Shown: positions 4,922-18,889 of the stretch, one piece after another
Position numbering within the stretch: position 1 is the stretch's first letter
Layout: every line of letters begins with the position of its first letter
Source: a virus
Lineage: Duplodnaviria; Caudoviricetes
Direction: 5' to 3' (one strand)
DNA length: 33,189 nt
IMG/VR virus record: IMGVR_UViG_3300032233_001266
Span: 1-33,189 of that record
The notes under the pieces: model-generated
Seen by the model: the letters and a program-made list of their open reading frames with translations, nothing else
What the model was told of the DNA's origin: nothing
The model's database searches: none
Position numbers and translations under genes: made by a program

Positions 4922-6685
4922 ATGCCACCAAGACGCCGTATAGCACCTTCTGGAGGGGACTCAGTATTAACTGCCCTCCAGGAGGACTTCAAACTATTTC
5001 TTCAAGCCCTTTGGCAACAACTAGACCTACCTTCACCCACCCGTGCTCAATATGCCATCGCAGACTACATCCAACACGGACCAAAACGCCTTCAAATCCA
5101 AGCGTTCCGTGGTGTTGGTAAGTCTTGGATTACTGGGGCTTTTGTTCTCTGGACTCTTTTTAACAACCCAGAAAAGAAAATCATGATCATCTCAGCTTCT
5201 AAGGAACGAGCTGACAACATGTCTATCTTCCTTCAGAAGCTGATCATTGAAACCCCCTGGTTAGCCCACCTAAGACCCAAGAGTGATGAAGCTCGGTGGT
5301 CTCGTATCTCCTTTGACGTGAACTGCTCCCCTCACCAGGCACCTTCCGTCAAATCAGTCGGTATTACCGGTCAGCTCACCGGTTCACGTGCTGACCTCAT
5401 GATTCTCGATGACATCGAAGTTCCTGGTAACTCCATGACCGAGATGATGCGTGAGAAGCTCCTTCAACTCTGTACTGAGGCTGAATCCATCCTTACCCCC
5501 AAGGAAGACTCTCGCATCATGTACCTCGGTACACCACAGACCACCTTCACTGTCTACCGCAAACTCGCAGAACGTAACTACAGACCCTTTGTGTGGCCTG
5601 CACGTTACCCACGTAAGATCTCTGCCTATGAAGGCCTTATAGCCCCTCAACTCCAAGAAGACTTGGATATGGGTGCTGATAGCTGGGCTGTAACCGACCC
5701 CGATCGCTTCTCTAATGATGACCTAACCGAACGGGAAGCTTCCATGGGTCGTAGCAACTTCATGTTGCAATTCATGCTTGATACCAGTCTTAGTGATGCA
5801 GAGAAGTTCCCCCTTAAATTTCAAGACCTCATCATTACCGCTGTTAACCCGACTCAAGCGCCGGATTCTGTGGTGTGGTGCTCTGATCCTCGTAATGTTC
5901 TCAAAGACCTGCCTACGGTTGGCCTCCCAGGCGATTACTTCTATTCACCAATGCAACTCCAAGGTGAATGGGGTACCTATACCGAAACAATCTGCTCCGT
6001 AGATCCCTCAGGTAGAGGCTCAGACGAAACAGCAGCTACATACATAAGCCAACGTAATGGATTCCTCTATGTCCATGAAATACGCGCTTATAGGGATGGC
6101 TATAGCGATAACACTCTCCTTGATATCCTCCGTGGTTGCAAGAAATATAATGTCTCTAAACTCCTCATCGAAACAAACTTTGGTGATGGCATTGTTGGTG
6201 AACTCTTTAAGAAACACCTCCAACAAACTAAACAAAATATCGGTGTCGAAGAAGTCCGTGCCACAGTCCGTAAAGAAGACCGTATCATTGACTCCCTAGA
6301 ACCTGTCATGAACCAACACCGCCTCATCATTGATCGACAGGTGGTGGAATGGGACTATAACTCCAATAAAGATGAAGCCCCAGAGAAACGTCTTCTCTAC
6401 ATGCTCTTCTATCAAATGTCTCGTATGTGTCGTGAGAAATTTGCCATTAAACACGATGACAGATTAGACTCCCTAGCACAAGCTGTTAAATACTTCACAG
6501 ATGCTATGGGTATCTCAGCTCAAGAAGTCGTTAACCAACGCAAACGTGATGAATGGAATGACATGCTCCAAGGTTTCCTAGATGACCCCCAAGCCTCCGC
6601 TAATCACGTTGTTTTTGGCATGAATATGGAACAAAGACAACAGGCTAGAGGGAAGACAACAAACACTGTCCCCACCTGGGTTTAA
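4922..6685 (+). CDS. Terminase large subunit (T7 gp19-like)
   Basis: Walker A AFRGVGKS, GQLTGSRAD, Walker B ILDDIE, LGTPQ, nuclease DPSGRGSDE and HDDRLD. Confidence 0.97.
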   Translation: MPPRRRIAPSGGDSVLTALQEDFKLFLQALWQQLDLPSPTRAQYAIADYIQHGPKRLQIQAFRGVGKSWITGAFVLWTLFNNPEKKIMIISASKERADNMSIFLQKLIIETPWLAHLRPKSDEARWSRISFDVNCSPHQAPSVKSVGITGQLTGSRADLMILDDIEVPGNSMTEMMREKLLQLCTEAESILTPKEDSRIMYLGTPQTTFTVYRKLAERNYRPFVWPARYPRKISAYEGLIAPQLQEDLDMGADSWAVTDPDRFSNDDLTEREASMGRSNFMLQFMLDTSLSDAEKFPLKFQDLIITAVNPTQAPDSVVWCSDPRNVLKDLPTVGLPGDYFYSPMQLQGEWGTYTETICSVDPSGRGSDETAATYISQRNGFLYVHEIRAYRDGYSDNTLLDILRGCKKYNVSKLLIETNFGDGIVGELFKKHLQQTKQNIGVEEVRATVRKEDRIIDSLEPVMNQHRLIIDRQVVEWDYNSNKDEAPEKRLLYMLFYQMSRMCREKFAIKHDDRLDSLAQAVKYFTDAMGISAQEVVNQRKRDEWNDMLQGFLDDPQASANHVVFGMNMEQRQQARGKTTNTVPTWV

Positions 6686-6689
6686 GGCT

Positions 6690-6713
6690 GGTAACGGGCG
6701 TATACAGGGGGAA
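6690..6713 (+). promoter_or_regulatory. Candidate phage RNAP promoter, copy 1
   Basis: GGTAACGGGCGTATACA|GGGGGAA, identical to 13045-13068. A 17-nt upstream part followed by a G-run matches T7 promoter layout. Confidence 0.65.
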
Positions 6714-6740
6714 GAGAGGGTGGACTCAACTCCCTGTAGG

Positions 6741-6768
6741 GGGGAAGACACAAATCTTCCCCTTTATT
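6741..6768 (+). terminator. Hairpin with short T-tract, possible terminator or pause site
   Basis: GGGGAAGA-CACAAA-TCTTCCCC followed by TTTATT. Confidence 0.45.
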
Positions 6769-6915
6769 AATGTCCCTGGGAATGGACATTCTGTAAGAAC
6801 CGCCAAACCCAAAAGACCAATCTTCCACTCACACCTTAAAGAACTGAATTAAGATCATCCCTGTGAGACCCTTTGAGTCACAAGGGATGATACTGATTCA
6901 GTATTATATATCAGC

Positions 6916-7233
6916 ATGGAGTATAAGTACCCTGATAACACACCTTCAACCTACATCTCCTACTTTAGGAACAGAGAAGGTCCTAATGGTATCCTTGTCT
7001 ATTACAAGAATGTAAGCAGATTTGTTACTACCAGTAAACAACTGAGAGATGTCTTTGGTCCTGCACGGTATACAGATAGTGTAAAGCTGGTATCAAAATG
7101 GTGTGATGAGATGATAGAAAAGTATGACTCGGTATCAGCTGATGTGACCCATGATGAGATTGTTAAAGATGGGTTCGGCCCTGAAGCTCATCTAGAAGAA
7201 GATCCAACAGCTAATACTAAGATGGTGATTTGA
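6916..7233 (+). CDS. Hypothetical protein, last late-side gene
   Basis: 105-aa ORF with ordinary globular composition, after terL. Confidence 0.65.
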   Translation: MEYKYPDNTPSTYISYFRNREGPNGILVYYKNVSRFVTTSKQLRDVFGPARYTDSVKLVSKWCDEMIEKYDSVSADVTHDEIVKDGFGPEAHLEEDPTANTKMVI

Positions 7234-7750
7234 ATTAGTTGGTAACAGCTACCTCACAGCAACTGTTGTCAAGGTGCAGCAAATAACCTGCGAATTTTTG
7301 GCAGAAATTTATTTTCCCTAATAAGCGGTACCGCTGGGCCGCACTACCCCCGTGTGGGGGTGCCGGACTTGGTACTAGATGGTATATCTAGTCCAAGATA
7401 CAGGGGTTCGCGGGTTTCAACTACCGCGCGGGGGTGATGTGCGCCTGTTTTCTACGCGGGAGGGGTTAACTCAACCTCAAGCGATCTGTCCCGATTTCAC
7501 TAAGCTTTGCTTATATATCGTGAGCTGATTGATAAGCAAAGATGATCAGTACTGCACTGCAACAGATCTGCTGCCATTGTCATATTTCGTTACACCAAAC
7601 CAGCTCCAACCTGCTACCTTGAGACCTCCTTTCTTCTTGAAGGTTGAGTATCTCGACTCTCCCTGTTAAGGGGGAGGAGAGTCTCGATCCTTCAACCAGA
7701 AGAAAGAGAGAGACCGACCTACCGACCAGCTGTGCCACTTTGCCAGCTGA
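7234..7750. other. Non-coding region probably containing the genome ends / terminal repeat
   Basis: Lies between terL and the first early promoter, where T7-like genomes end. Dense in palindromes. Exact terminal-repeat limits cannot be seen in a single copy. Confidence 0.6.
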
Positions 7751-7754
7751 CCGC

Positions 7755-7783
7755 TTGACATCCTGTCCACCATGGTATAGGAT
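7755..7783 (+). promoter_or_regulatory. Host sigma70-type early promoter
   Basis: Perfect TTGACA (7755-7760), 17-bp spacer, TAGGAT (7778-7783). Confidence 0.75.
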
Positions 7784-7793
7784 GCATAGCATC

Positions 7794-7812
7794 GAACCTC
7801 GACAACTGAATA
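7794..7812 (+). promoter_or_regulatory. boxA-like antitermination element
   Basis: GAACCTCGACAACTGAATA resembles cyanobacterial rrn boxA (GAACCTTGAAAA core) and lies just after the predicted TSS. Confidence 0.5.
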
Positions 7813-8286
7813 CAGGGCTGGTCACAACACGGAACCAGAGGAGCGAGAGATCCCTCGAAGCAGAGACATGGTTGCAACCCAACCAGCTGCTACCAGCCCG
7901 CCACCTGTCCACTTCAGTATGAAGTGATAGCGCAGAGTCACATGCGCTTTATAAGTCTGCTCATGGCAGGCTGACATCCACCGGGGTGCACACCGTTCGA
8001 GTCGGTGACCAGTCATTTGTTTATATCTCAAGAACGCATTCGTTATGCTTTATCAAATTAACTACGGTCCTTCACTTAGGGACTACACTCACGCTAGTGA
8101 GTACATCCATGCTGACACAATCGATCAAGCATGGGCTGAGGCTAGGCGTCGTTGCCTAGCTCGTGAGGTAGTGCAAGAAGTACTGCCTTGCGTACAATTC
8201 AAGTCAGCGTTCGGCTGATGTCTGCTCTCAGGGACGCACCCTGTCAGCAGCCTTCAAGTGCTGCAATCATTCACTCAATTGTTTAT

Positions 8287-8523
8287 ATGTTCACTGTTCC
8301 TTTTCGTTCGTCTTCTTGCATTGAGAAGCTTGAAGTCAACCCCTTCTTTGGTGTTGTCAAGTGTACCTTCAAGGATGGGTACACGTATGAGTATGACAAC
8401 GTTAGTAAGCGAGCGATCCTCAACCTGTTGTTCAATCCCAACATGAGCCTAGGCTTTTGGGTTAACACGAACCTAGTCAACACATCACGAACTGACTATG
8501 CTTGTGTTGATTTCTCGGTCTGA
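8287..8523 (+). CDS. First early protein, KTSC-like small domain
   Basis: ATG 8287. SSCI--L-V...V---FKDG--YEY-NVS...SLGFWVN resembles the KTSC pattern. Confidence 0.65.
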   Translation: MFTVPFRSSSCIEKLEVNPFFGVVKCTFKDGYTYEYDNVSKRAILNLLFNPNMSLGFWVNTNLVNTSRTDYACVDFSV

Positions 8524-8613
8524 TTAGCTGGTCTGATAGTTACACTTAGGGATGGCTAATCACCATCCTTTTCTGTAGCTTTCAAGCTACGTATCCACTT
8601 ACGTATACTGAAC

Positions 8614-9189
8614 ATGACAACCATGATTATCGAGCGCCTGACTGGTCAATCCCTGATTGACTACATCAAGGACGCTACCGATAAGGGACTTAGTAAGTCC
8701 GACATGTGTCTAGGTGCAGGCTATGTGAAGGAGCTACCGTTTGGTGGCACTGGAGCTAGCTTCACCGCCTTCTATGAAGCTTTGTTGGAGGCTAAGGGTG
8801 TTGATGTTGAGGCTGTTGCAGCCGATCAAGCTGAACACTACGTTGACTACAACAAGATGACTGAAGATGAACAGAACTTCTACGATGAGGTGTCTAACCT
8901 CTTTGGTGAGAAGTGGACACATGCACAACAGATGGAGTTCATGGAAGAACTCGACGACCTTGGGATCAAGACAGTCGAGCAGCTCAACGATGCGTACTAT
9001 GGTTGCAACGATGAGTATAACGCTGAGGCATACTTTGCCGAGGATTTCATGATTGAAACCGGTACAATTAGCGAGGACTCACCGTTGTTCTCGTTTATTG
9101 ATTGGCAGCAAGTGTGGGATCATAGCTTCCGCTATGACTTCAACACGGTTGAGTTTGATGGTGAAACGTACTTCTTCCGTAACTCCTGA
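8614..9189 (+). CDS. Acidic early protein: cyAbrB-like N-terminus plus ArdA-like C-terminus
   Basis: N-terminal LTG--L...SKSD----AGYV...FTAFYEALLEAKG. C-terminal YYG...FAEDF...FIDWQQVW...YDF. Strongly D/E-rich. Confidence 0.7.
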   Translation: MTTMIIERLTGQSLIDYIKDATDKGLSKSDMCLGAGYVKELPFGGTGASFTAFYEALLEAKGVDVEAVAADQAEHYVDYNKMTEDEQNFYDEVSNLFGEKWTHAQQMEFMEELDDLGIKTVEQLNDAYYGCNDEYNAEAYFAEDFMIETGTISEDSPLFSFIDWQQVWDHSFRYDFNTVEFDGETYFFRNS

Positions 9190-9273
9190 CTCTCTCACTC
9201 AGCCCATCTATCCACATGGGTATGTTGGGTTTTCTGAGGGACTCACTCCCTTAAGTAACACTAACAAATCACA

Positions 9274-9546
9274 ATGACAATGGAAATCTTTACATTAGCG
9301 AGTGTCTGCGACTGTAGTGGTGACACCGTAATTATTGGTGTATTTGAAAGCATGGACGCAGTCATTGAAAGGTTGCGTTTCATTGGAGCCTATACAGATC
9401 CTGGGGAAGGGTACAAGATTGAGTGTTTCCAGTTGAGTACATTTGAAGAAGAATCAAAACGTACAAAGGAAATGCTTATTACTCGCGCTGAATACAAAGC
9501 AAAACAAGAACGTGATCAAAAGAAATCAGAATCTAGCGAAGCTTGA
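9274..9546 (+). CDS. Hypothetical early protein
   Basis: 90-aa ORF in the early operon. Confidence 0.65.
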   Translation: MTMEIFTLASVCDCSGDTVIIGVFESMDAVIERLRFIGAYTDPGEGYKIECFQLSTFEEESKRTKEMLITRAEYKAKQERDQKKSESSEA

Positions 9547-9639
9547 AGATACAGCTATCGCCGACTATCACAAGGGGTTGCTTACACGTAAGCAGCTCCT
9601 TTCTATTGTTCATAAATTAGACCGCATTAGTTCCACTAA

Positions 9640-9867
9640 ATGACACAAGAACCTAGCAAAGACTGGTTAATTCTGAATGCTATTGAATGTTGGCTATATT
9701 ACTTTCCTGATAACCCATATGCTGAACGTTATAAAGAATTAAAGGATGCAATCGAGTTACAAATGCAAAACCTCGACACCAGAGAAGTGGAAGAGGAAGG
9801 GGAAAGCAAGGCCGCAGGCCGTGCGCCAATCAAAAGAAAGACTCAAACACCTCAAGCTAAAGTATAA
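9640..9867 (+). CDS. Hypothetical early protein
   Basis: 75-aa ORF, tightly packed with its neighbours. Confidence 0.6.
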   Translation: MTQEPSKDWLILNAIECWLYYFPDNPYAERYKELKDAIELQMQNLDTREVEEEGESKAAGRAPIKRKTQTPQAKV

Positions 9868-9869
9868 GA

Positions 9870-10031
9870 ATGATTCACAATCACAGAATTGATGTGTATG
9901 AGGTCACGCTTAGTTCAGGTACTAGATACATCCTAGCGCCCAATTCCGAGCGAGCAGCATGGAATGCATTGGAATTGTCCCATGAACGCAACGATAAACT
10001 TCTCAACGTTAAACTAAAAGATGAGTGGTAA
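9870..10031 (+). CDS. Small hypothetical early protein (53 aa)
   Basis: MIHNHRIDVYEVTLSSGTRYILAPNSERAAWNALELSHERNDKLLNVKLKDEW. Fills the gap exactly and overlaps the next start. Below the ORF-track cutoff. Confidence 0.6.
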   Translation: MIHNHRIDVYEVTLSSGTRYILAPNSERAAWNALELSHERNDKLLNVKLKDEW

Positions 10032-10344
10032 GAAACGCTATTATCCGAATAATTGGCAAGAATACAAGGACTCAGATGATGACATGTTTGAAACCCACAC
10101 GTTTGAAGAGTTAATGATGTGGAAAGTAGGAGGATGGGAGTTACCGTCTTCTGTTGATTGTATCATCAGGGTTTCAGATGTAGCCACAGGTAAGATAAAG
10201 GAGCATGTTTATCAACGTAATAGTGCAGCCAGAAAGAAGGTTGCAGAGTTAATTAAAACACCTGGCATTGAGTTCACGGTATGTGATCACGATGCAATCC
10301 ACCATTTAACGCAAGAGGAAGCAATTAATGAACTCGACTTTTGA
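10021..10344 (+). CDS. Hypothetical early protein
   Basis: 107 aa, YYPNNW...WELPSSV-CIIR...EHVYQ. Confidence 0.7.
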   Translation: MSGKKRYYPNNWQEYKDSDDDMFETHTFEELMMWKVGGWELPSSVDCIIRVSDVATGKIKEHVYQRNSAARKKVAELIKTPGIEFTVCDHDAIHHLTQEEAINELDF

Positions 10345-10453
10345 GCGCAGGTTAGAGCAACTTATGCAAGAGTTACATAATCATGAGCATAAAGAGGAGC
10401 TGCTAAAGCTAGCGATGGAGCAGCTGTACGACGACATGGACACCATTGAATAG
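10328..10453 (+). CDS. Small helical hypothetical protein (41 aa)
   Basis: MNSTFERRLEQLMQELHNHEHKEELLKLAMEQLYDDMDTIE, with GAGG shortly upstream. Confidence 0.55.
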   Translation: MNSTFERRLEQLMQELHNHEHKEELLKLAMEQLYDDMDTIE

Positions 10454-10573
10454 GTGTGCTGCATATAGCTGCGGCTTGTCGTCGTGTAGCCCTTTGAACA
10501 TAGTTAAGCAATGCTTCGGAGTGCAGACAACTGCTGCACGATCTTTAGTATATGTTTATGCAGTAAAGCATTA

Positions 10574-10774
10574 ATGCGTATCTTCTCTTTCGGACCACTG
10601 TACATCGGTACAGATAAGGAATCCTTTTGGGATTTCTGGATAAATAGTACGGATGTATCTATCCACCTTGGTATAATCCGAGTAGAGTTAGATCGGCCAC
10701 ATTTAAGGAACCATGGACCCCTTCAGAAGGGAGCTCACCAACCCAACAATGGAGAGGCTTCTCAAGGCTATTGA
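10574..10774 (+). CDS. Hypothetical protein
   Basis: ATG 10574 within the 10511 ORF. Overlaps the start of the wHTH gene. Confidence 0.45.
   Translation: MRIFSFGPLYIGTDKESFWDFWINSTDVSIHLGIIRVELDRPHLRNHGPLQKGAHQPNNGEASQGY
10669..10677 (+). promoter_or_regulatory. Extended -10 promoter for the regulator-integrase pair
   Basis: TG-G-TATAAT, 35 nt upstream of ATG 10713, which has an AAGGA Shine-Dalgarno. Confidence 0.6.
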
Positions 10775-11069
10775 GTTGCTTCGGGTCTTAGTGGATCGAG
10801 AGATGCCAGCCCAGGCAGTCTCCTGCTTTTTATATGTTGCATCGCATAGTCGTTGCCATAAAACTGCAATGGAGGAGGACTTGGGGTTCACTACTGCCAG
10901 TGGCAGTCGTAACACCGACTGGTTGTCTCAAACCAACCGGCTAGGTCAGCAAGGACTTGGCCTAATTATCAAGGAGGCAGACCCATCTAACAAACGCCGA
11001 GTCATGCTCACTCTCTCACCCAAGGGAGAAGAGATTAGTAAACAACTCGAACGAATTCTCTATGATTAA
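10713..11069 (+). CDS. MarR-like winged-helix transcription regulator
   Basis: HTH (EEDLGFTTASGSRNTDWL) and wing (GLI-KE-DP-NKRR-ML-LS-KG). Directly upstream of the integrase. Confidence 0.85.
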   Translation: MDPFRRELTNPTMERLLKAIELLRVLVDREMPAQAVSCFLYVASHSRCHKTAMEEDLGFTTASGSRNTDWLSQTNRLGQQGLGLIIKEADPSNKRRVMLTLSPKGEEISKQLERILYD

Positions 11070-11961
11070 ACCGAAAAGCATCACCCGTTTTTCACAAGCG
11101 TTTAAGTTTACGCAAGAGTACAAACCTACATGGAGTTGTGGTAGTGCATTCGCAGGTAACTGCGTAAGCAACTACAACCACATCATGACATATGCAGCTG
11201 TTGATCCCAAGTTAGAGACAATCAGCCACAACTGGTTAAAGTCTATCTTGGAGGAATATGCTGATGATCGTGCATCACAAGGTCAAGAAACTTCTAACGC
11301 CACATTAAATCGCCACCTAGCTACGGTTAGGACAGTGATGAAGGTGATGGCAATTGAGGATTACATTGATCGTGTACCTGTCTTCCAACAATGGGAAGAA
11401 AGTGAGGGACGTACTAACTTCTACCGCAAGGAAGAAGTAGATCAACTTATTCACTACTCACTAGAACGTGATGACATTGCGCTAGCTCATACCATCCAAT
11501 TTGCAGCCTATACAGGTCTGCGTCAAGGTGAATTGAGAAAGCTCAGAGTCAGGGACGTGGACTGGAGAGATGACATTATCCACGTAGGTGGCACGCCTGA
11601 GACGCGCACTAAAGCAAAGAACTACAGGGTTGTTGGTATTGCCGACTCACTGAAATCAATGCTAAAGATGCGTACGCAGGGCCGCGATCGAATGGATTAT
11701 GTGTTCGATGAATGGACCAGTGGTCAGCAATTGTACCGGAAGTTTCTGAAGGTACGCAACCGACTCATCCATGAATCGGATTACATCGACGAATCGTATG
11801 TGTTCCACACGCTACGTCACAGCTATGGGACGTGGCAGATACAAGCGGGTACACCGCTAGTAGAAGTGAAGTACGCCATGGGTCACAAGAATGTGAGCAC
11901 CACTGAGCGGTACATCCATAACACATATGGGTCCAAACGTCAAATGGCCAACGCTATCTAG
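11062..11961 (+). CDS. int: Tyrosine integrase
   Basis: YTGLRQGEL (R), TKAK (K), FHTLRH, MGH, TTERY (Y). All catalytic residues present. Confidence 0.95.
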   Translation: MIKPKSITRFSQAFKFTQEYKPTWSCGSAFAGNCVSNYNHIMTYAAVDPKLETISHNWLKSILEEYADDRASQGQETSNATLNRHLATVRTVMKVMAIEDYIDRVPVFQQWEESEGRTNFYRKEEVDQLIHYSLERDDIALAHTIQFAAYTGLRQGELRKLRVRDVDWRDDIIHVGGTPETRTKAKNYRVVGIADSLKSMLKMRTQGRDRMDYVFDEWTSGQQLYRKFLKVRNRLIHESDYIDESYVFHTLRHSYGTWQIQAGTPLVEVKYAMGHKNVSTTERYIHNTYGSKRQMANAI

Positions 11962-12043
11962 TCAACGTCTAGTAGGTCCTGAAAAAGGGGTCAACGGCAC
12001 GCAACCAGGTAAAGTTCTAGTGATCTCGTCGCTGAGATCCCTT

Positions 12044-12085
12044 GGGAGCGTGGCGGAATTGGTAGACGCATTCGACTCAAAATCG
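12044..12085 (+). mobile_element. Putative attP core: 5' half of tRNA-Leu(CAA)
   Basis: GGGAGCGTGGCGGAATTGGTAGACGCATTCGACTCAAAATCG gives the acceptor 5' strand, D-arm and anticodon loop CTCAAAA, with no T-arm or 3' strand. Located just downstream of int. Confidence 0.85.
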
Positions 12086-12114
12086 CAGCCAAATTCTATG
12101 CAGTTTGGTACACG

Positions 12115-12137
12115 AGGGGGAGAGATCCCCCTTTTTT
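12115..12137 (+). terminator. Intrinsic terminator after attP
   Basis: AGGGGGA-GAGA-TCCCCCT followed by a T-run. Confidence 0.7.
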
Positions 12138-12231
12138 ATTGGTATAGCTAGCTATCCACTTGGGTACGCTTTACACGAAATATCTAGCTGCAAAAACGAA
12201 GGTCAATTAACAATTATTCACAATCACGCCT

Positions 12232-14571
12232 ATGAAAGATCCAGCGCTGCTGGCGGAGCAGGTTGCCTTGGAGCGCGACCAGATCAGGCAAGGGCTTGCC
12301 CGGTTACGTGACAACACCAAGAAGCTGGAGGAAAAGGAGTACGCCTCAGCGTCTGTCTATGGGGTGAGCTCGATCGATGCACTACTGCCAAAGGTGGTAG
12401 AGCAGATCACAAAAACCAGAGCCCGGATCAATAAAGGAAAGACCGGCACATCGTTCAAGGAGATCCAGCACTTTTTGGCAGACCTTGAACCACTGGCTGC
12501 AGCTGCCATTGCCTGCAAGCTCACCTTTGACAAAGTGTTTGGGTTTAAGCAGGGCAGCAATCAGCTGGTTTCCGTCTGCGATGCAATTGGCAGTGCCGTA
12601 GAGGCTGAGTGTCAGATGCGTCACTACGAGGCAAAGGCCCCAGGCCTTCTTAACGTACTAAAACAGAACTATTGGCACAAGGCCATCGGCACCCACCAAA
12701 AGAAGGTGGTGATCCAAACCCTGATGAACCGCTATGACGTGGAGGTTTGGAAAGGATGGGGCCGAGCTAATCGGGTCAAGCTTGGTGGTTGGCTGTTGGA
12801 CTGCATCATGCAGACCTCGGGTTGGTTTGAGAAGGAGATCAGGAGGGAAGGAACACGAACAAACAACTTCGTAGTACCAACAGCAGATTTCATAGCCATC
12901 AAGGATCAGGTGATGGCCGATGCTGAGCTGTTTGCTCCACTGACATGGCCAATGCTCGTTGAACCAAACGATTGGACGAACGACACAGCTGGTGGCTACA
13001 TCCTGAACGAAGTCATGAAGGGCCATGACATGGTGCGTCGGGGAGGTAACGGGCGTATACAGGGGGAAACACCGCTGACCTTTTTGAACAAGATTCAGAA
13101 GGTTGCGTACCGCCTGAACCCATTCACTGTTGAAGTGGCTGAAGTGTTGATGGAAAAGGGGATAGCGATTGGTAAATTTGTACCGATCACGGAGATCCCA
13201 CTACCTCCTAAGCCATACGACATTGCTGAGAATGACGAGGCTCGGATGAGCTATCGACGTGCAGCAGCTGAGGTCATGAACAACAATGCCCAGAGCTTCA
13301 AGCGTTCATGTCGTACAAGGATGACGATGGAGGCTGTTGCTCGCTTCAAGAGTAAGGATGAGTTCTACATCCCTTGGTCTTTTGATTATCGGGGTAGAGT
13401 TTATCCAATACCAGCATTCCTAACACCACAAGACACCGATTTTGGTAAGTCCTTACTTAGGTTTGCTGATGAAACACATATCACAAAAGAAGCTGAGGAT
13501 TGGATCGCATTCAGCGTAGCCACCTGCTACGGGCTAGATAAGGAGCCGATGGATGTGCGTCTTGAATGGGTCTTGGATCACCAGCAGTACATCACACAAG
13601 TAGCAACTGACCCACTAGGGAACATGCACTTGTGGGAAGTAGCTGATGAACCTTGGCAATTCCTAGCGGCGTGTGATGAGTACTACCATGTAGTCATTGC
13701 TCGTGATCGAAAGACAACAGGCTTCATGGTTGCTTGTGATGCAACATGTAGTGGTCTTCAGATCCTTGCTGGGTTAGCCCGTGATGCCTCTACAGCAAGC
13801 CTTGTGAACGTCTTGCCTAGCGATAGACCACAAGATGCTTACAAGGTCATTGCTGAGGCTGCTAGGCCCCACTGTCCAAAATCTATCCAGCCTTATATGG
13901 ATAGAAAAACTGTTAAACGTACGGTAATGACCGTACCTTACAACGCCAAACCTTTTTCAAACCGTGCATACATCAAGGAAGCACTGAAGGAGAAAGGAGT
14001 TGAGATTGAGAAGGATGACTTAACAGCTACTGTCAAAGCCGTACGTGATGCCATGAACCGGGTAGTACCTGGGCCTATGGCTGTCATGAAATGGATCGAA
14101 GATGAAGTCAAGCTGGCGATGAAGCGAGGTGTCAGAGAACTTAAGTGGGTTACACCATCAGGTTTTGTGGTCTACCAAAAGCTTCAGAAGAAGTTAGTTG
14201 AAGTAGTAAGTCTTCAGTTGCTTGGACGCTGTGAAGTGCGGGTAGCAACAGATGATACCGATAAGGTTGATGCAAACCGCCATAAGGCAGCTACTGCTCC
14301 AAATCTGATTCACAGTCTTGATGCAAGCTTGTTACATCTAAGCGCAATACGGTTCAATTCACCGATCGCATTGATCCACGACTCAGTGCTGTGCAGAGCT
14401 ACAGACATGTCGATCCTATCCACTATGGTACGGGAAACATACATGTATCTCTTTGCGGAGCATGACTATCTAAAAGACTTTGCCCGCCAGATCGGGGCAG
14501 AGACAGAACCACCGATCATTGGAAACCTTGAACCCAAGTCGGTAATTAATTCCACGTATTTCTTTTGTTAA
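12232..14571 (+). CDS. Single-subunit DNA-directed RNA polymerase (T7 gp1-like)
   Basis: DYRGRVY, DATCSGLQ (motif A), RKTVKRTVMTVPY (motif B), PNLIHSLDA, IHDS (motif C). Confidence 0.98.
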   Translation: MKDPALLAEQVALERDQIRQGLARLRDNTKKLEEKEYASASVYGVSSIDALLPKVVEQITKTRARINKGKTGTSFKEIQHFLADLEPLAAAAIACKLTFDKVFGFKQGSNQLVSVCDAIGSAVEAECQMRHYEAKAPGLLNVLKQNYWHKAIGTHQKKVVIQTLMNRYDVEVWKGWGRANRVKLGGWLLDCIMQTSGWFEKEIRREGTRTNNFVVPTADFIAIKDQVMADAELFAPLTWPMLVEPNDWTNDTAGGYILNEVMKGHDMVRRGGNGRIQGETPLTFLNKIQKVAYRLNPFTVEVAEVLMEKGIAIGKFVPITEIPLPPKPYDIAENDEARMSYRRAAAEVMNNNAQSFKRSCRTRMTMEAVARFKSKDEFYIPWSFDYRGRVYPIPAFLTPQDTDFGKSLLRFADETHITKEAEDWIAFSVATCYGLDKEPMDVRLEWVLDHQQYITQVATDPLGNMHLWEVADEPWQFLAACDEYYHVVIARDRKTTGFMVACDATCSGLQILAGLARDASTASLVNVLPSDRPQDAYKVIAEAARPHCPKSIQPYMDRKTVKRTVMTVPYNAKPFSNRAYIKEALKEKGVEIEKDDLTATVKAVRDAMNRVVPGPMAVMKWIEDEVKLAMKRGVRELKWVTPSGFVVYQKLQKKLVEVVSLQLLGRCEVRVATDDTDKVDANRHKAATAPNLIHSLDASLLHLSAIRFNSPIALIHDSVLCRATDMSILSTMVRETYMYLFAEHDYLKDFARQIGAETEPPIIGNLEPKSVINSTYFFC
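13045..13068 (+). promoter_or_regulatory. Candidate phage RNAP promoter, copy 2 (inside the RNAP gene)
   Basis: Exact 24-nt match to 6690-6713. Encodes GNGRIQGE. Confidence 0.6.
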
Positions 14572-15493: not shown

Positions 15494-17073
15494 GCGAGAG
15501 CGAATTCGTAAGGCATGAGCCATGCGCTAGCTGTGGATCATCAGATGCAAATAGCTTGTATTCCGATGGCCACAGCTTTTGTTTTGCATGTCTTACATGG
15601 CTCCCGGGAGAGGGAGAAATTGTTCACAATCACAAAAGAATGACCAACAGTGTCTACTTACAAGGCTCAGCCGGACGGCTGCAGAAACGAAACATCAGTG
15701 AAAAAGTCTGTCAAAAATATAAAATCTACAAAGACGGAGACCTTCTACGGTTCTATTATTTCGACGATGCTGGAATCGTTCGGGGTTGCAAAGTAAAGAC
15801 AAAAGAAAAAGACTTTAGCTATGAAGGAGAAGTACCCGGAACCCTCTTTGGGCAACATTTGTTTCCCTCCACTGGAAAACGAGTTGTCATTACAGAGGGG
15901 GAACTCGATGCAGCTTCATGTCAAGAAGCTATGCCGGGGTGGCCGATGGTTTCTTTACCTAGCGGTGCCGCATCGGCAAGAAAGGCGATCCAAAGGGCTA
16001 TCCCATGGCTACAGGGCTATGAAAGCATTGTCTTGTTCTTCGACAACGACGAGGCTGGCCGTAAGGCAACGACGGAAGCGGCTGGGGTCTTACCACCTGG
16101 CAAGGTGTCGATCGCTCAAATTGTTGAGCCATACAAGGATGCAAGCGATGCGCTTCAAGCCAATGACGCTGAAGCAATTAGGAGAGCTATTTGGGATGCC
16201 ACCCCATACAGGCCGGATGGCATCGTTGACGCAAAGACTCTTCTCGAAGTAGTAACAACACCTAGTCCACCACATGATCACGAATACCCCTTCAAAGGGT
16301 TACAAGAAAAGCTCAAAGGTATCCGTTATGGAGAGCTCACCTGCATTACCGCAGGATCTGGAATCGGAAAAAGTTCATTCTGCAGAGAACTTGCAACTCA
16401 CCTACTCAACAACGGGGAACGAGTTGGATACTTGGCTTTGGAGGAAAGTAACAGACGAACAGCCTTAGGGCTGATGTCTGCAGCAGTAGGAAAATCATTA
16501 CACATTGGAGAACATGACCGATCTACCCTCACCGAGGCTTATCAAAAGTCTCTTGCTAATTGGAACTTGTTTCTTTTTGATGGGTTTGGGTCTTATGATC
16601 CAGATCTCATCTACAACAGAATTGAGTACCTGGCAACAGGTCTTGATACGAGGATCATATTTCTAGATCACCTATCCATTCTATTGAGTGGTCTTGATGG
16701 CGATGAACGTCGCATGATCGACACCACAATGACCAAACTTCGCTCATTGGTTGAGCGCACAGGGATTGCCATGTTCTTGGTATCCCACTTACGTCGTACT
16801 ACTAGCACTGATAAAAATCATGAAGAGGGAGCAAGAGTCACCCTTGGACAACTACGTGGTTCTGCAGCAATTGCGCAACTGTCAGATGGAGTTATTGCAC
16901 TTGAACGGGATCAGCAGTCGAATGGAGGCAACTCTAGAACGACTGTACGAGTCCTTAAAAACAGATACAGCGGAGAGACTGGCGTAGCTTGCCATCTTGA
17001 TTACGACCTAGATACATGTAAGTTCAATGAAACAGAACCAGAATCAGAATTCGACGCAAGTAACGATTTCTAA
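15490..17073 (+). CDS. Primase/helicase (gp4-like)
   Basis: Cys4 Zn finger, TOPRIM (EGELD, FDND), Walker A AGSGIGKS, LRGS, KNRYSGETG. Confidence 0.97.
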   Translation: MSESEFVRHEPCASCGSSDANSLYSDGHSFCFACLTWLPGEGEIVHNHKRMTNSVYLQGSAGRLQKRNISEKVCQKYKIYKDGDLLRFYYFDDAGIVRGCKVKTKEKDFSYEGEVPGTLFGQHLFPSTGKRVVITEGELDAASCQEAMPGWPMVSLPSGAASARKAIQRAIPWLQGYESIVLFFDNDEAGRKATTEAAGVLPPGKVSIAQIVEPYKDASDALQANDAEAIRRAIWDATPYRPDGIVDAKTLLEVVTTPSPPHDHEYPFKGLQEKLKGIRYGELTCITAGSGIGKSSFCRELATHLLNNGERVGYLALEESNRRTALGLMSAAVGKSLHIGEHDRSTLTEAYQKSLANWNLFLFDGFGSYDPDLIYNRIEYLATGLDTRIIFLDHLSILLSGLDGDERRMIDTTMTKLRSLVERTGIAMFLVSHLRRTTSTDKNHEEGARVTLGQLRGSAAIAQLSDGVIALERDQQSNGGNSRTTVRVLKNRYSGETGVACHLDYDLDTCKFNETEPESEFDASNDF

Positions 17074-17185
17074 ACCTAAAGCACCAACGCCAGAAGCAAT
17101 TGAAAAAGCAAAGTTCATCGACAAAACCTACAAGGGATGGACCAACACTAATCTTCGATCTGGAAACGAACGGTCTACTAAATGA
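17027..17185 (+). CDS. Small hypothetical ORF (52 aa) overlapping the helicase end and exonuclease start
   Basis: MKQNQNQNSTQVTISKPKAPTPEAIEKAKFIDKTYKGW...; spans the intergenic gap. Confidence 0.4.
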   Translation: MKQNQNQNSTQVTISKPKAPTPEAIEKAKFIDKTYKGWTNTNLRSGNERSTK

Positions 17186-17660
17186 TGTCACCAGCATTCA
17201 CTGTATGGTCATCCATGATGTTGAGGCTGATCAAACTATTACCTACAATGATGAGGGTAGTTGTGAGCCAATTGTCAGGGGTGTTCAACGACTTGAAGAT
17301 GCTGGAATAATTGTTGGCCATAACGTCATAGGGTATGACATACCAGTTGTGAAGAAGCTGTACCCATGGTTTAACCCTAGCGGAGATGTTGTAGATACCT
17401 TGGTTTTATCCAGGCTGTACCACGCAAACATGCTGAGAGTAGATCAAAACAAGGAATGGGACCACATGCCAGTACAGCTCTATGGCAGACACTCTCTGGA
17501 ATCCTATGGATATCGATTAGGTGAGTTCAAAGGGAACTTCTCTAAGACAACCGACTGGAAGAACTGGTCAGAGGAGATGCAGGAGTACTGCATACAAGAC
17601 GTTGTTGTAACTAAAAAACTATGCGAACACTTCCACCCCTACCTGACTGGTGCTCGCTAG
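17100..17660 (+). CDS. DNA polymerase 3'-5' exonuclease domain (N-terminal part of gp5)
   Basis: ExoI FDLETNG, ExoII GHNVIGYD, ExoIII YCIQDV. Start codon uncertain. Confidence 0.9.
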   Translation: MKKQSSSTKPTRDGPTLIFDLETNGLLNDVTSIHCMVIHDVEADQTITYNDEGSCEPIVRGVQRLEDAGIIVGHNVIGYDIPVVKKLYPWFNPSGDVVDTLVLSRLYHANMLRVDQNKEWDHMPVQLYGRHSLESYGYRLGEFKGNFSKTTDWKNWSEEMQEYCIQDVVVTKKLCEHFHPYLTGAR

Positions 17661-18889
17661 AGCATCAAGTTGCACAGATACTTACAGATCAAGAGATATA
17701 TGGATGGTATTTTGATGAACGCTCTGCATGGGAACTTGAATCGACTCTCCGCAGAGAGCTTGAAGAAATTAGTCAAGTACTACGAGACAGGCACCCTCTC
17801 ATCGCGGGTTCGGAATTCACTCCTAAGAGAAATAACAAGACCAGTGGATATGTGGTAGATGCACCACTTACACGTCTGAAGGAATTCAATCCAACTTCAA
17901 GGGACCACATAGCGTGGGTCATGAAGGAACACTATGGATGGCAACCAACTCAATTCACCGATAAAGGAAAGGCAACCATCGATGAGGTTGTGCTGAAGGA
18001 TATCGGCACACCTATAGCCCTGCAGTTCTTCAGGTGCCTTGAGTTAACCAAGCAGCTAGGAATGCTCTCAGAGGGCATCAATGCCTGGCTAAAGCTAGTT
18101 AAGGCTAATCGTATCCATCACCACTGTTCCGTTGCCTGTGCGACCCACAGGATGGCACACAGGAAGCCAAACCTTGGGCAGGTACCAAGTGAATTGGAGT
18201 TCCGAAGCTTATTCAAAGCCACACCTGGAATGGTGATGGTTGGTGCTGACCTATCTGGAATTGAGTTGAGGATGCTTGCGCATTACTTGGCAAGATATGA
18301 CGGTGGGAGGTACGGAGACATTCTTTTGAATGGTGATATCCACCAGGAGAATGCTGATAAGATCGGCATAAGCCGAAGGCTTGTTAAGACTGTCACCTAT
18401 GCATTCCTATATGGAGCTGGTGATGAGAAAATCGGATTGAGTTATGACCAACAGCTACCAAAGGACAAGGCAAGAACAAAGGGCAAGGAAATTAGGCAAG
18501 CCTATATGGATGCTATTCCTGGTCTGGAGAAGCTTGTCAATGCTACTAAACAGGCAGCTGGAAGGGGCTACATCAAAGCTATAGATGGTCGGAAGATCAC
18601 CGTTGATAGCGGCCATAAAGCCTTGAACTATTTGCTGCAATCATCTGCTGGTGTAATTGCCAAGCGATGGATGCAGTTAGCTCATGAAGCGATCCAAGAG
18701 ACTGGAATCAAAGCAAACCAACTTGCATTTATCCATGATGAACTGCAGTTTGAAACCACACCTGAGTATGTAGATGACCTGAAGTTTGGACTTCTGTTGG
18801 CGGCTACTGCTGCAGGTGAATATTACGAATGCCGAGTACCAATCGCAGCGGAAGCAAAGAGCGGTAATAGCTGGGCAGATGTTCACTAA
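17621..18889 (+). CDS. Family A DNA polymerase domain (C-terminal part of gp5)
   Basis: DLSGIELR (A), KTVTYAFLYG (B), IHDE (C), FNPTSRDHI. Confidence 0.95.
   Translation: MRTLPPLPDWCSLEHQVAQILTDQEIYGWYFDERSAWELESTLRRELEEISQVLRDRHPLIAGSEFTPKRNNKTSGYVVDAPLTRLKEFNPTSRDHIAWVMKEHYGWQPTQFTDKGKATIDEVVLKDIGTPIALQFFRCLELTKQLGMLSEGINAWLKLVKANRIHHHCSVACATHRMAHRKPNLGQVPSELEFRSLFKATPGMVMVGADLSGIELRMLAHYLARYDGGRYGDILLNGDIHQENADKIGISRRLVKTVTYAFLYGAGDEKIGLSYDQQLPKDKARTKGKEIRQAYMDAIPGLEKLVNATKQAAGRGYIKAIDGRKITVDSGHKALNYLLQSSAGVIAKRWMQLAHEAIQETGIKANQLAFIHDELQFETTPEYVDDLKFGLLLAATAAGEYYECRVPIAAEAKSGNSWADVH

Follow-up and report, generated by a model that had tools for sequence, protein, structure and literature searches.

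Two exact copies of a 24-nt sequence (GGTAACGGGCGTATACAGGGGGAA) in the genome of a T7-like cyanopodophage are, judged by sequence comparison, very probably both promoters of the phage's own RNA polymerase (RNAP). They follow the layout of phage Syn5, with a predicted promoter of 15 nt and a predicted transcription start (+1) at A13059 within the RNAP gene and, shortly downstream of terL, at A6704. The stretch of DNA analysed here, which we refer to as the window, is 33,189 nt long, compared with 43–48 kb for complete records of relatives, so that part of the genome is probably absent and the statement that there are only two copies holds for the window only. A promoter inside the RNAP gene is not new, as this layout has been published for Syn5 and the window phage is a further case. 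Given that precedent, the layout itself is of low surprise; the family-wide recognition code described below is a useful addition.

The repeat and its genomic setting

The gene for the terminase large subunit (terL; 4922..6685, plus strand, 587 aa) matches PHROG 38 (E 1e-117). The first copy of the repeat (6690–6713, plus strand) lies between genes and starts 5 nt past the terL stop codon. The second (13045–13068, plus strand) lies in frame within the gene for a T7-like single-subunit RNAP (12232..14571, plus strand, 779 aa; PHROG 414, E 1.7e-222; alignment to T7 RNAP, E 5e-67), where it forms codons 272–279 (GNGRIQGE). An earlier note on this DNA had described this exact repeat after terL and inside the RNAP gene, with no other full copy. 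Both statements were borne out, and no third match with at most 3 mismatches was found on either strand of the window. Two matches occurred in none of 100 shuffled windows. The exact direct repeat next in length in the window measures 15 nt, and the longest repeat in order-4 Markov simulations (n = 100) was 18 nt. No further promoter copy matching at least 13/15 bases was found in the 33-kb window, which probably lacks about a quarter of the genome, nor in 21/24 complete relatives, while 3/24 have a third copy.

The best tblastn matches of the RNAP are cyanophage RNAPs, with that of S-CBP1 at the top (73%); the RNAP of S-SBP1 has reportedly been characterised. Upstream of the RNAP gene are an intrinsic-terminator-like hairpin (12114..12133, plus strand; terminator scan), a gene for a MarR-like regulator and an integrase gene. 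A host sigma-70 promoter at the repeat was rejected, as none of the nine consensus hits in 6500–13500 overlaps either copy. The repeat was likewise rejected as attP; a tRNA-like attachment candidate sits elsewhere, near 12046–12085. In the only RNA run found, a freshwater metatranscriptome available as contigs only, 29 of 30 bins were covered, at flat depth, and the data may contain DNA, which makes the run uninformative on start sites.

Positional homology to Syn5

Syn5 RNAP uses two 15-nt promoters, one of them inside the RNAP gene, according to the account of Zhu et al. (2013, J Biol Chem 288:3545) in PMC3950665. By homology to the Syn5 in-gene promoter, the predicted in-gene promoter of the window phage (−15 to −1) spans 13044..13058 on the plus strand (AGGTAACGGGCGTAT). 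The predicted post-terL promoter spans 6689..6703, also on the plus strand (TGGTAACGGGCGTAT), with its register taken from Syn5 and from a co-varying block at −15 to −3. The in-gene promoters occupy homologous codons: residue 272 of the window RNAP maps to Syn5 position 4924, 5 nt before the start of the repeat in that phage. A13059 is the third base of an Ile codon preceding a Gln codon, and in Syn5, too, +1 is the base preceding the Gln codon. In both phages the second copy lies just past terL on the same strand, at distances from stop codon to predicted +1 of 19 nt (window) and 21 nt (Syn5), and in both the post-terL transcript would open with a hairpin. The sequences themselves differ. The two RNAPs are 36% identical, the promoters are identical at 6/15 bases, the predicted +1 is A in the window phage and G in Syn5, and the hairpin loop is AGGGTGGA in the former and AGTGGTGC in the latter. 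The window phage, unlike Syn5, also carries psbA, the mark of cluster MPP-B. The earlier note had placed +1 near 6707 and 13062; the predicted starts lie three bases further upstream, and the promoter is the 15 nt that precede them.

The two copies change together in relatives

The earlier note had suggested comparing the post-terL sequence with the RNAP codons in relatives, and this comparison revealed that the two copies co-vary: the in-gene 15-mer matched the post-terL copy of its own genome at 12/15 bases or more in 76 of 78 genomes or contigs. Counts were made after removal of L032 (a copy of S-B28), L125 (a copy of L123), and L256 and L259 (no anchor). In the first set (53 loci), the mean match to the own post-terL region was 14.08/15, compared with 9.47 across genomes, and this own-genome mean was reached in 0 of 20,000 permutations. 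At least 12/15 bases matched at 51 of the 53 loci and only 11/15 at the remaining two; the replication set reached at least 12/15 in 25/25. Control 15-mers from elsewhere in or around the RNAP gene averaged 9.2/15. Among independent pairs (n = 26), 106 of 121 differences were mirrored in both copies; for the flanking sequence the figure was 7 of 152. The excess of own over cross matches is concentrated at −15 to −3, and it rises sharply at −15 (0.96 vs. 0.30, compared with 0.47 vs. 0.35 at −16), in line with a promoter of 15 bp. Whereas the repeat, where it lies, how it is conserved and how its copies co-vary were observed directly, initiation by the phage RNAP, the start base and all functional roles are inferred.

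The predicted +1 falls 10–75 nt past the terL stop codon in 52 of 53 loci, and both positions are kept in the two cyanopodophage clusters, even where RNAP identity is as low as 36%. The sequence is diverse, with 137 distinct in-gene 15-mers among 206 RNAPs. Third codon positions within the site vary less than those elsewhere in the RNAP gene in all three distance bins (e.g., 0.09 vs. 0.155). Among the outgroups Pasto, HTVC011P and HTVC019P (T7-like pelagiphages and a Rhizobium phage), 0/3 have an in-gene copy; when a wide region after terL was compared, the best matches were 11–12/15. A post-terL motif occurs four times in Pasto, but not within its RNAP gene. A family-wide description of the promoter pair was not found in our literature searches, whose reach mostly excluded subscription journals.

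Promoter bases vary with specific RNAP residues

The predicted promoter-reading residues of the window RNAP are K68, K70, R178, R205, T210, S660, R666 and E668, mapped onto structure by sequence alignment to T7 RNAP. In an unbiased scan, promoter bases were linked to the equivalents of T7 N748, R756, Q758 and R96, as well as to residues 210 and 178 of the hairpin region. The base-by-residue scan (9,750 pairs, 206 RNAPs; L035 was excluded from alignment A1 for an internal stop) placed its top eight pairs on residues 668, 210, 178, 660, 205, 68 and 666, and the same eight base–residue pairs came out on top when the non-coding terL copy was used (63 loci). T7 promoter-contact positions rank 1 to 3 of 750 columns in base co-variation. 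Residue 660 co-varies with −11/−10, residue 666 with −9 and residue 668 with −8. In non-overlapping pairs (n = 93), residue 668 differs in 28/28 pairs with a changed −8 base and in 4/65 with an unchanged one. This co-variation indicates that bases −11 to −8 are probably read by the specificity loop, through the equivalents of N748, R756 and Q758: residues 660, 666 and 668 would read −11/−10, −9 and −8, respectively. Residues 68 and 70 would read −15 to −12, and residues 210, 205 and 178 would read −5/−4. At −11, D or E goes with C, and N or K with G, in agreement with the T7-family code of 748D with C and 748N/K with G given in PMC11880802.

Base −7 was not strongly linked to residue 658, which corresponds to T7 R746 (z 2.3). 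The window RNAP has V658 at this position and base −7 is variable, so that the pairing of a conserved R746 with C at −7 does not apply. The residues of the window RNAP agree with common combinations at −9, −8, −5 and −4. Few RNAPs in the set have Ser at 660, which leaves the code thin for the −11/−10 bases of the window phage. Divergence at the eight reading residues outpaces the background ~2.5- to 4-fold. Positional homology to Syn5, co-variation of the copies and co-variation with promoter-reading residues together lend strong support to the earlier proposal of two phage RNAP promoters, one within the RNAP gene.

A conserved hairpin after terL

From the predicted +1, the post-terL sequence is predicted to form a hairpin (6704..6737, plus strand) with the conserved loop AGGGTGGA at 6717–6724; the fold of 6704–6770 has an energy of −31.5 kcal/mol (z −3.7). 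A second predicted hairpin (6738..6765, plus strand), followed by a short T-rich tail, looks terminator-like by eye and is missing from the terminator-scan list. The loop sequence is conserved in 58 of 61 relatives, and the pairs that close the loop, which are of several types, are preserved in 57, 56 and 57 of the 58 distinct sequences. The second hairpin, defined by a loose pattern (stem end plus T3), matches in 50/61 relatives. By folding energy alone, the post-terL RNA (median z −2.0) differs little from the sequence that follows the in-gene copy (−1.6). We rejected the hairpins as a known Rfam family: there were 0 hits in the window, and the six weak hits, at E 1.3 or worse, were far under gathering scores.

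In T7, the promoter phiOR lies just after the terminase gene and has a role in concatemer processing, packaging or replication. The post-terL copy would correspond to phiOR, yielding a short RNA that opens with the conserved hairpin, with some read-through to right-end genes. Because of the role of phiOR, we infer a likely function of this RNA in genome-end processing or packaging.

Alternative explanations

Both copies could instead be binding sites of another phage protein, such as the MarR-like regulator, the terminase small subunit or a replication factor. Regulator and integrase genes do lie upstream of the RNAP gene and one copy is close to the likely packaging end, but the site lacks a palindrome, the homologous Syn5 sequence is an RNAP promoter in use, and the bases co-vary with RNAP residues at T7 promoter-contact positions, which makes such a role highly improbable. 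The probability is close to negligible that a functionless neutral duplication or gene conversion placed 24 nt of RNAP coding sequence beside terL. This would account for the identity of the window copies over 24 nt, past the 15-nt core, but not for the retention of two positions in both clusters, the sharp end of the match at −15 or the reduced variability of third codon positions in the site.

Alternatively, both copies may be RNAP promoters, with the post-terL copy merely expressing right-end genes (thyX or talC in relatives, a 105-aa ORF here), the hairpin acting as a 5' stabiliser and end processing playing no part; we consider this a real but minority prospect. T7-type leaders often start with a hairpin, which fits this explanation. 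Many relatives have thyX or talC after terL (in part from PMC4646655). However, S-TIP28 has no annotated gene after terL and yet keeps the promoter and hairpin, ~160 nt short of the end of its record. Conservation also extends to the sequence of the loop, and a terminator-like second hairpin follows within ~60 nt in the window.

Comparison with other phages and published predictions

The window phage resembles T7 in its homologous RNAP, in the links of the N748, R756 and Q758 equivalents to −11/−10, −9 and −8 with an equal residue–base code at −11, and in having a promoter close to the right end that directly follows the terminase gene, as phiOR does. Unlike in the window phage, the T7 promoters lie outside the RNAP gene, and there are 18 of them compared with two copies in the window. 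Moreover, the co-varying block of the window family begins at −15, the specificity hairpin of the window RNAP is two residues shorter, residue 658 is no conserved Arg, and −5/−4 vary jointly with residues 210, 205 and 178.

The temperate T7-like phage LUZ100 also has a MarR-like gene and an integrase gene before its RNAP and a phage promoter tied to RNAP expression. However, its description (PMC10134795) gives eight phage promoters and suggests that transcription of the RNAP gene from one of them creates positive feedback. On a linear genome, an in-gene promoter cannot provide such feedback on the RNAP gene. In the 'Syn5-like' set of PhageProm (PMC11880802, Supplementary Dataset S1, 18 rows), the four Syn5 rows agree with the sites described here, whereas the 14 rows for S-CBP1, S-B28 and P-SSP7 are sequences other than the homologous pair. 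The P-SSP7 and S-CBP42 promoters in Table 1 of Curry et al. (2024; PMC11475235) also differ from the homologous pair; the text of that paper names 6 of 8 active enzymes, R1 and R2 not among them.

Implications for cyanopodophage transcription

Host RNAP would make the phage RNAP message, after which the phage RNAP would initiate within its own gene and transcribe the genes for replication, structure and packaging in a single long unit. The linkage of polymerase and promoter suggested in the earlier note could be no more than partial, since the post-terL copy is not linked to the polymerase and has to change as well. Avoidance of positive feedback on full-length RNAP, the other benefit suggested there, is hypothetical. 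That enzyme and promoter form an orthogonal pair is plausible, with 6/15 bases in common with the Syn5 promoter. More tentatively, all RNAP-bearing marine and freshwater T7-like cyanopodophages might have a fast-diversifying, self-encoded promoter, with near relatives mutually orthogonal. Their code might extend that of T7 by base-specific reading of −5/−4 through the intercalating hairpin region, and the post-terL copy might give rise to a small, structured and conserved RNA with an invariant loop that brings in the machinery for packaging or end processing.

The discovery of new single-subunit RNA polymerases is described in PMC11475235 as limited by promoter prediction. If the rule described here holds, the promoter of any such enzyme could be read from ~codons 271–276 of the gene that encodes it, with the post-terL copy as a check. 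In model cyanophages such as P-SSP7 and S-TIP37, where our literature searches found no mapped phage promoters, the rule would supply candidates, and across the family it would yield more than 100 natural enzyme–promoter pairs together with a testable residue–base code.

An exact repeat after terL and inside the RNA polymerase gene

The exact 24-nt repeat claimed in the earlier note was confirmed at 6690–6713, starting 5 nt 3' of the terL stop, and at 13045–13068 (+), covering codons 272–279 of the RNA polymerase (RNAP) gene. No third match with up to three mismatches occurs in the window, and shuffled sequences predict none; no third copy at 13/15 or better of the predicted 15-nt promoter was found within the 33,189 nt. 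The next longest exact repeat in the window is 15 nt, and the maximum over 100 simulated windows was 18 nt.

The window encodes terL, a regulator, an integrase, a T7-like RNAP, replication genes, psbA, which marks cluster MPP-B (PMC4646655, in part), and T7-like structural genes, ordered as late genes, terL and early genes. Part of the genome is probably missing, as related records measure 43–48 kb. S-CBP1 has the nearest RNAP among the named matches listed (73% identity), and the RNAP of Syn5 is 36% identical. The DNA polymerase (17100–18889) is split over two overlapping frames, with exonuclease and polymerase parts, and is annotated likewise in P-SSP7 and S-TIP37. Directly 3' of the integrase gene lies a tRNA-like 5' fragment (~12046–12085) that by eye resembles tRNA-Leu and is probably attP; ARAGORN predicted no whole tRNA there, and contigs of a freshwater metatranscriptome (X1) have loose ends at 12051, 12084 and 12085.

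The Syn5 precedent and the predicted start site

Syn5 RNAP uses just two promoters, one of them within the RNAP gene, and more than 37 kb is transcribed from a single promoter (PMC3950665, in part); the available part of the PMC11880802 supplement lists the sites at 4922 and 44790. We compared 24 named cyanophage records, one per distinct phage, picked from 60 listed RNAP-match rows. Among exact repeats that overlap the RNAP gene of Syn5, the longest is the known promoter; its in-gene copy starts 5 nt from the codon aligned with window residue 272, and its second copy starts 5 nt 3' of the terL stop. As the Syn5 promoter is numbered with A at −8 and C at −6 (PMC6395800, in part), +1 comes right after the 15-mer. 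This is the base preceding the Gln codon, and the same register in the window predicts +1 at A6704 and A13059, three bases upstream of the earlier estimates (6707 and 13062). The window repeat is real and very likely functional, as a member of a Syn5-type two-promoter system.

The two copies co-vary

For the first comparison, 53 loci were used: the 24 records, the window itself and those IMG/VR loci in which both sites were present (30, or 28 once the duplicates L032 and L125 had been removed). On average, the in-gene 15-mer agreed with the post-terL region of its own genome at 14.08/15 bases, which 0 of 20,000 permutations reached, and with those of other genomes at 9.47; control 15-mers from elsewhere in or around the RNAP gene (n = 3402) averaged 9.2. 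The own match was at least 12/15 in 51/53 loci; no other genome did better in 50 loci, and in 43 of these none did as well. The excess identity falls mainly within −15 to −3, and the predicted +1 lies 17–21 nt past the terL stop in 33/53 loci. Residues encoded by the promoter were left out of a tree from which 26 independent pairs were taken; in these pairs the terL copy mirrored 106 of 121 differences at the site, versus 7 of 152 in the flanks. Three further scans gave a second set, in which 25/25 loci scored 12/15 or better; at least one of them (L207) probably represents a cultured phage closely similar to a named record.

A stretch of 18 nt from the window repeat occurs twice, in the same layout, in one other IMG/VR contig, the near-identical L030. 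In this contig and an X1 contig, the end of terL has an additional 23 bases (window 6675), placing the promoter at +42 from the stop. Two RNAPs (L256 and L259) have no Gln-Gly-Glu anchor at the promoter position. Third copies were found in three of 24 complete records: 7B11-B and S-B28 (L004 and L011) have a promoter-like copy (14/15) after thyX, 1330 nt past the terL stop, and S-CBP2 (L019) has one (13/15) near 16404, within a ribonucleotide reductase gene. The in-gene copy was absent from three non-cyanobacterial T7-like phages examined. Rhizobium phage Pasto (L344) carries a 17-nt motif four times (11882, 21998, 25073 and 42180), including once after RNAP and once after terL; this is probably a T7-style promoter.

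Polymerase residues that track promoter bases

We scanned 206 RNAPs with 137 distinct 15-mers (13 promoter positions by 750 alignment columns, leaving out residues 262–284). The top eight of 9750 base/residue pairs were −8/668, −5/210, −4/178, −10/660, −5/205, −11/660, −15/68 and −9/666; no strong link joined −7 to residue 658, which counts against the pattern. With the non-coding terL copy in place of the in-gene one (63 loci), the same eight came out on top; other stretches of the gene, 18 in all, gave 0.19–0.52 bits versus 1.01. Co-change across 93 nearest pairs that do not overlap put every named residue at rank 1 to 3 of 750; residue 668 changed in 28/28 pairs with a change at −8 and in 4/65 without one. 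When prediction was restricted to relatives at a distance above 20%, the residue gave the correct base in 188/201 cases at −8 (majority base 78) and 191/200 at −5 (majority base 72). The window fits this code, with E668, T210, R178 and R666 alongside G−8, C−5, G−4 and C−9; L174, at only 72% identity, shares six of the eight predicted reading residues and bases −10 to −1.

In the T7 alignment, residue 660 corresponds to N748, 68 and 70 to R96 and K98, and 178 to K206, while 205–210 fall inside T7 233–243. Residues 666 and 668 would correspond to R756 and Q758 if a two-residue gap is set at the hairpin tip. The regions of the remaining linked residues are known as the "AT-rich loop" and "intercalating hairpin". 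Promoter contacts in the T7 family are R746, N748, R756 and Q758, and the code at −11 pairs 748D with C, 748N with G and 748K with G (PMC11880802, section 15); the same residue–base combinations appear in the cyanophage RNAP table.

Across 77 pairs of close relatives, bases −3 to +6 are nearly unchanged (0 to 0.03), third codon positions change less in the site than elsewhere, and differences at the eight reading residues exceed the background 2.5- to 4-fold. This pattern is consistent with fast turnover of specificity.

The predicted post-terL transcript

The predicted fold of 6704–6770 has two hairpins, the first beginning at the predicted +1 (z −3.7). The loop is of type AGGGTGGA or AGTGGTGC in 58 of 61 distinct post-terL sequences, and pairing begins at +1 to +3 in 58/61. 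The three loop-closing pairs, as G-C, A-U or U-A, are kept in 57/58, 56/58 and 57/58, a count in which loops of either 8 or 9 nt were accepted, a choice that favours pairing. By folding z alone, the post-terL region is only weakly above the in-gene control (−2.0 versus −1.6), and Rfam has no family match for the hairpins. A sub-group (L014, L144 and L149) has a longer insert in place of the 8-nt loop, and a third small hairpin (6771–6790) follows the second, terminator-like hairpin, with similar sequence in several relatives. T7 phiOR has a role in end processing or packaging. By analogy, the post-terL copy may have a similar role; the available part of PMC9860248 describes the T7 pac signals, not the promoter's role.

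Feedback, linkage and novelty

The earlier note proposed that the in-gene promoter avoids positive feedback and keeps polymerase and promoter linked. Because the promoter lies at codons 271–276, transcription of a linear genome from it cannot produce full-length RNAP mRNA, and on joined genomes hairpins at 6738–6765, 9572–9601 and 12114–12133 separate the terL copy from the RNAP gene. These positions agree with an absence of positive feedback; that its absence was selected for does not follow. The in-gene copy sits between the reading residues, at most ~1.2 kb from each, and linkage is only partial because any change must also be made in the terL copy, which is unlinked.

We found no family-wide description of this architecture in the literature searched, mostly outside subscription journals. 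In the parts available, 14 of 18 rows listed in the PhageProm promoter set (PMC11880802) and the P-SSP7 and S-CBP42 promoters predicted by Curry (PMC11475235) differ from the sites found here. The two-promoter architecture itself is already published for Syn5. The layout is therefore little surprise, and the more interesting part is the family-wide rule together with the recognition code.
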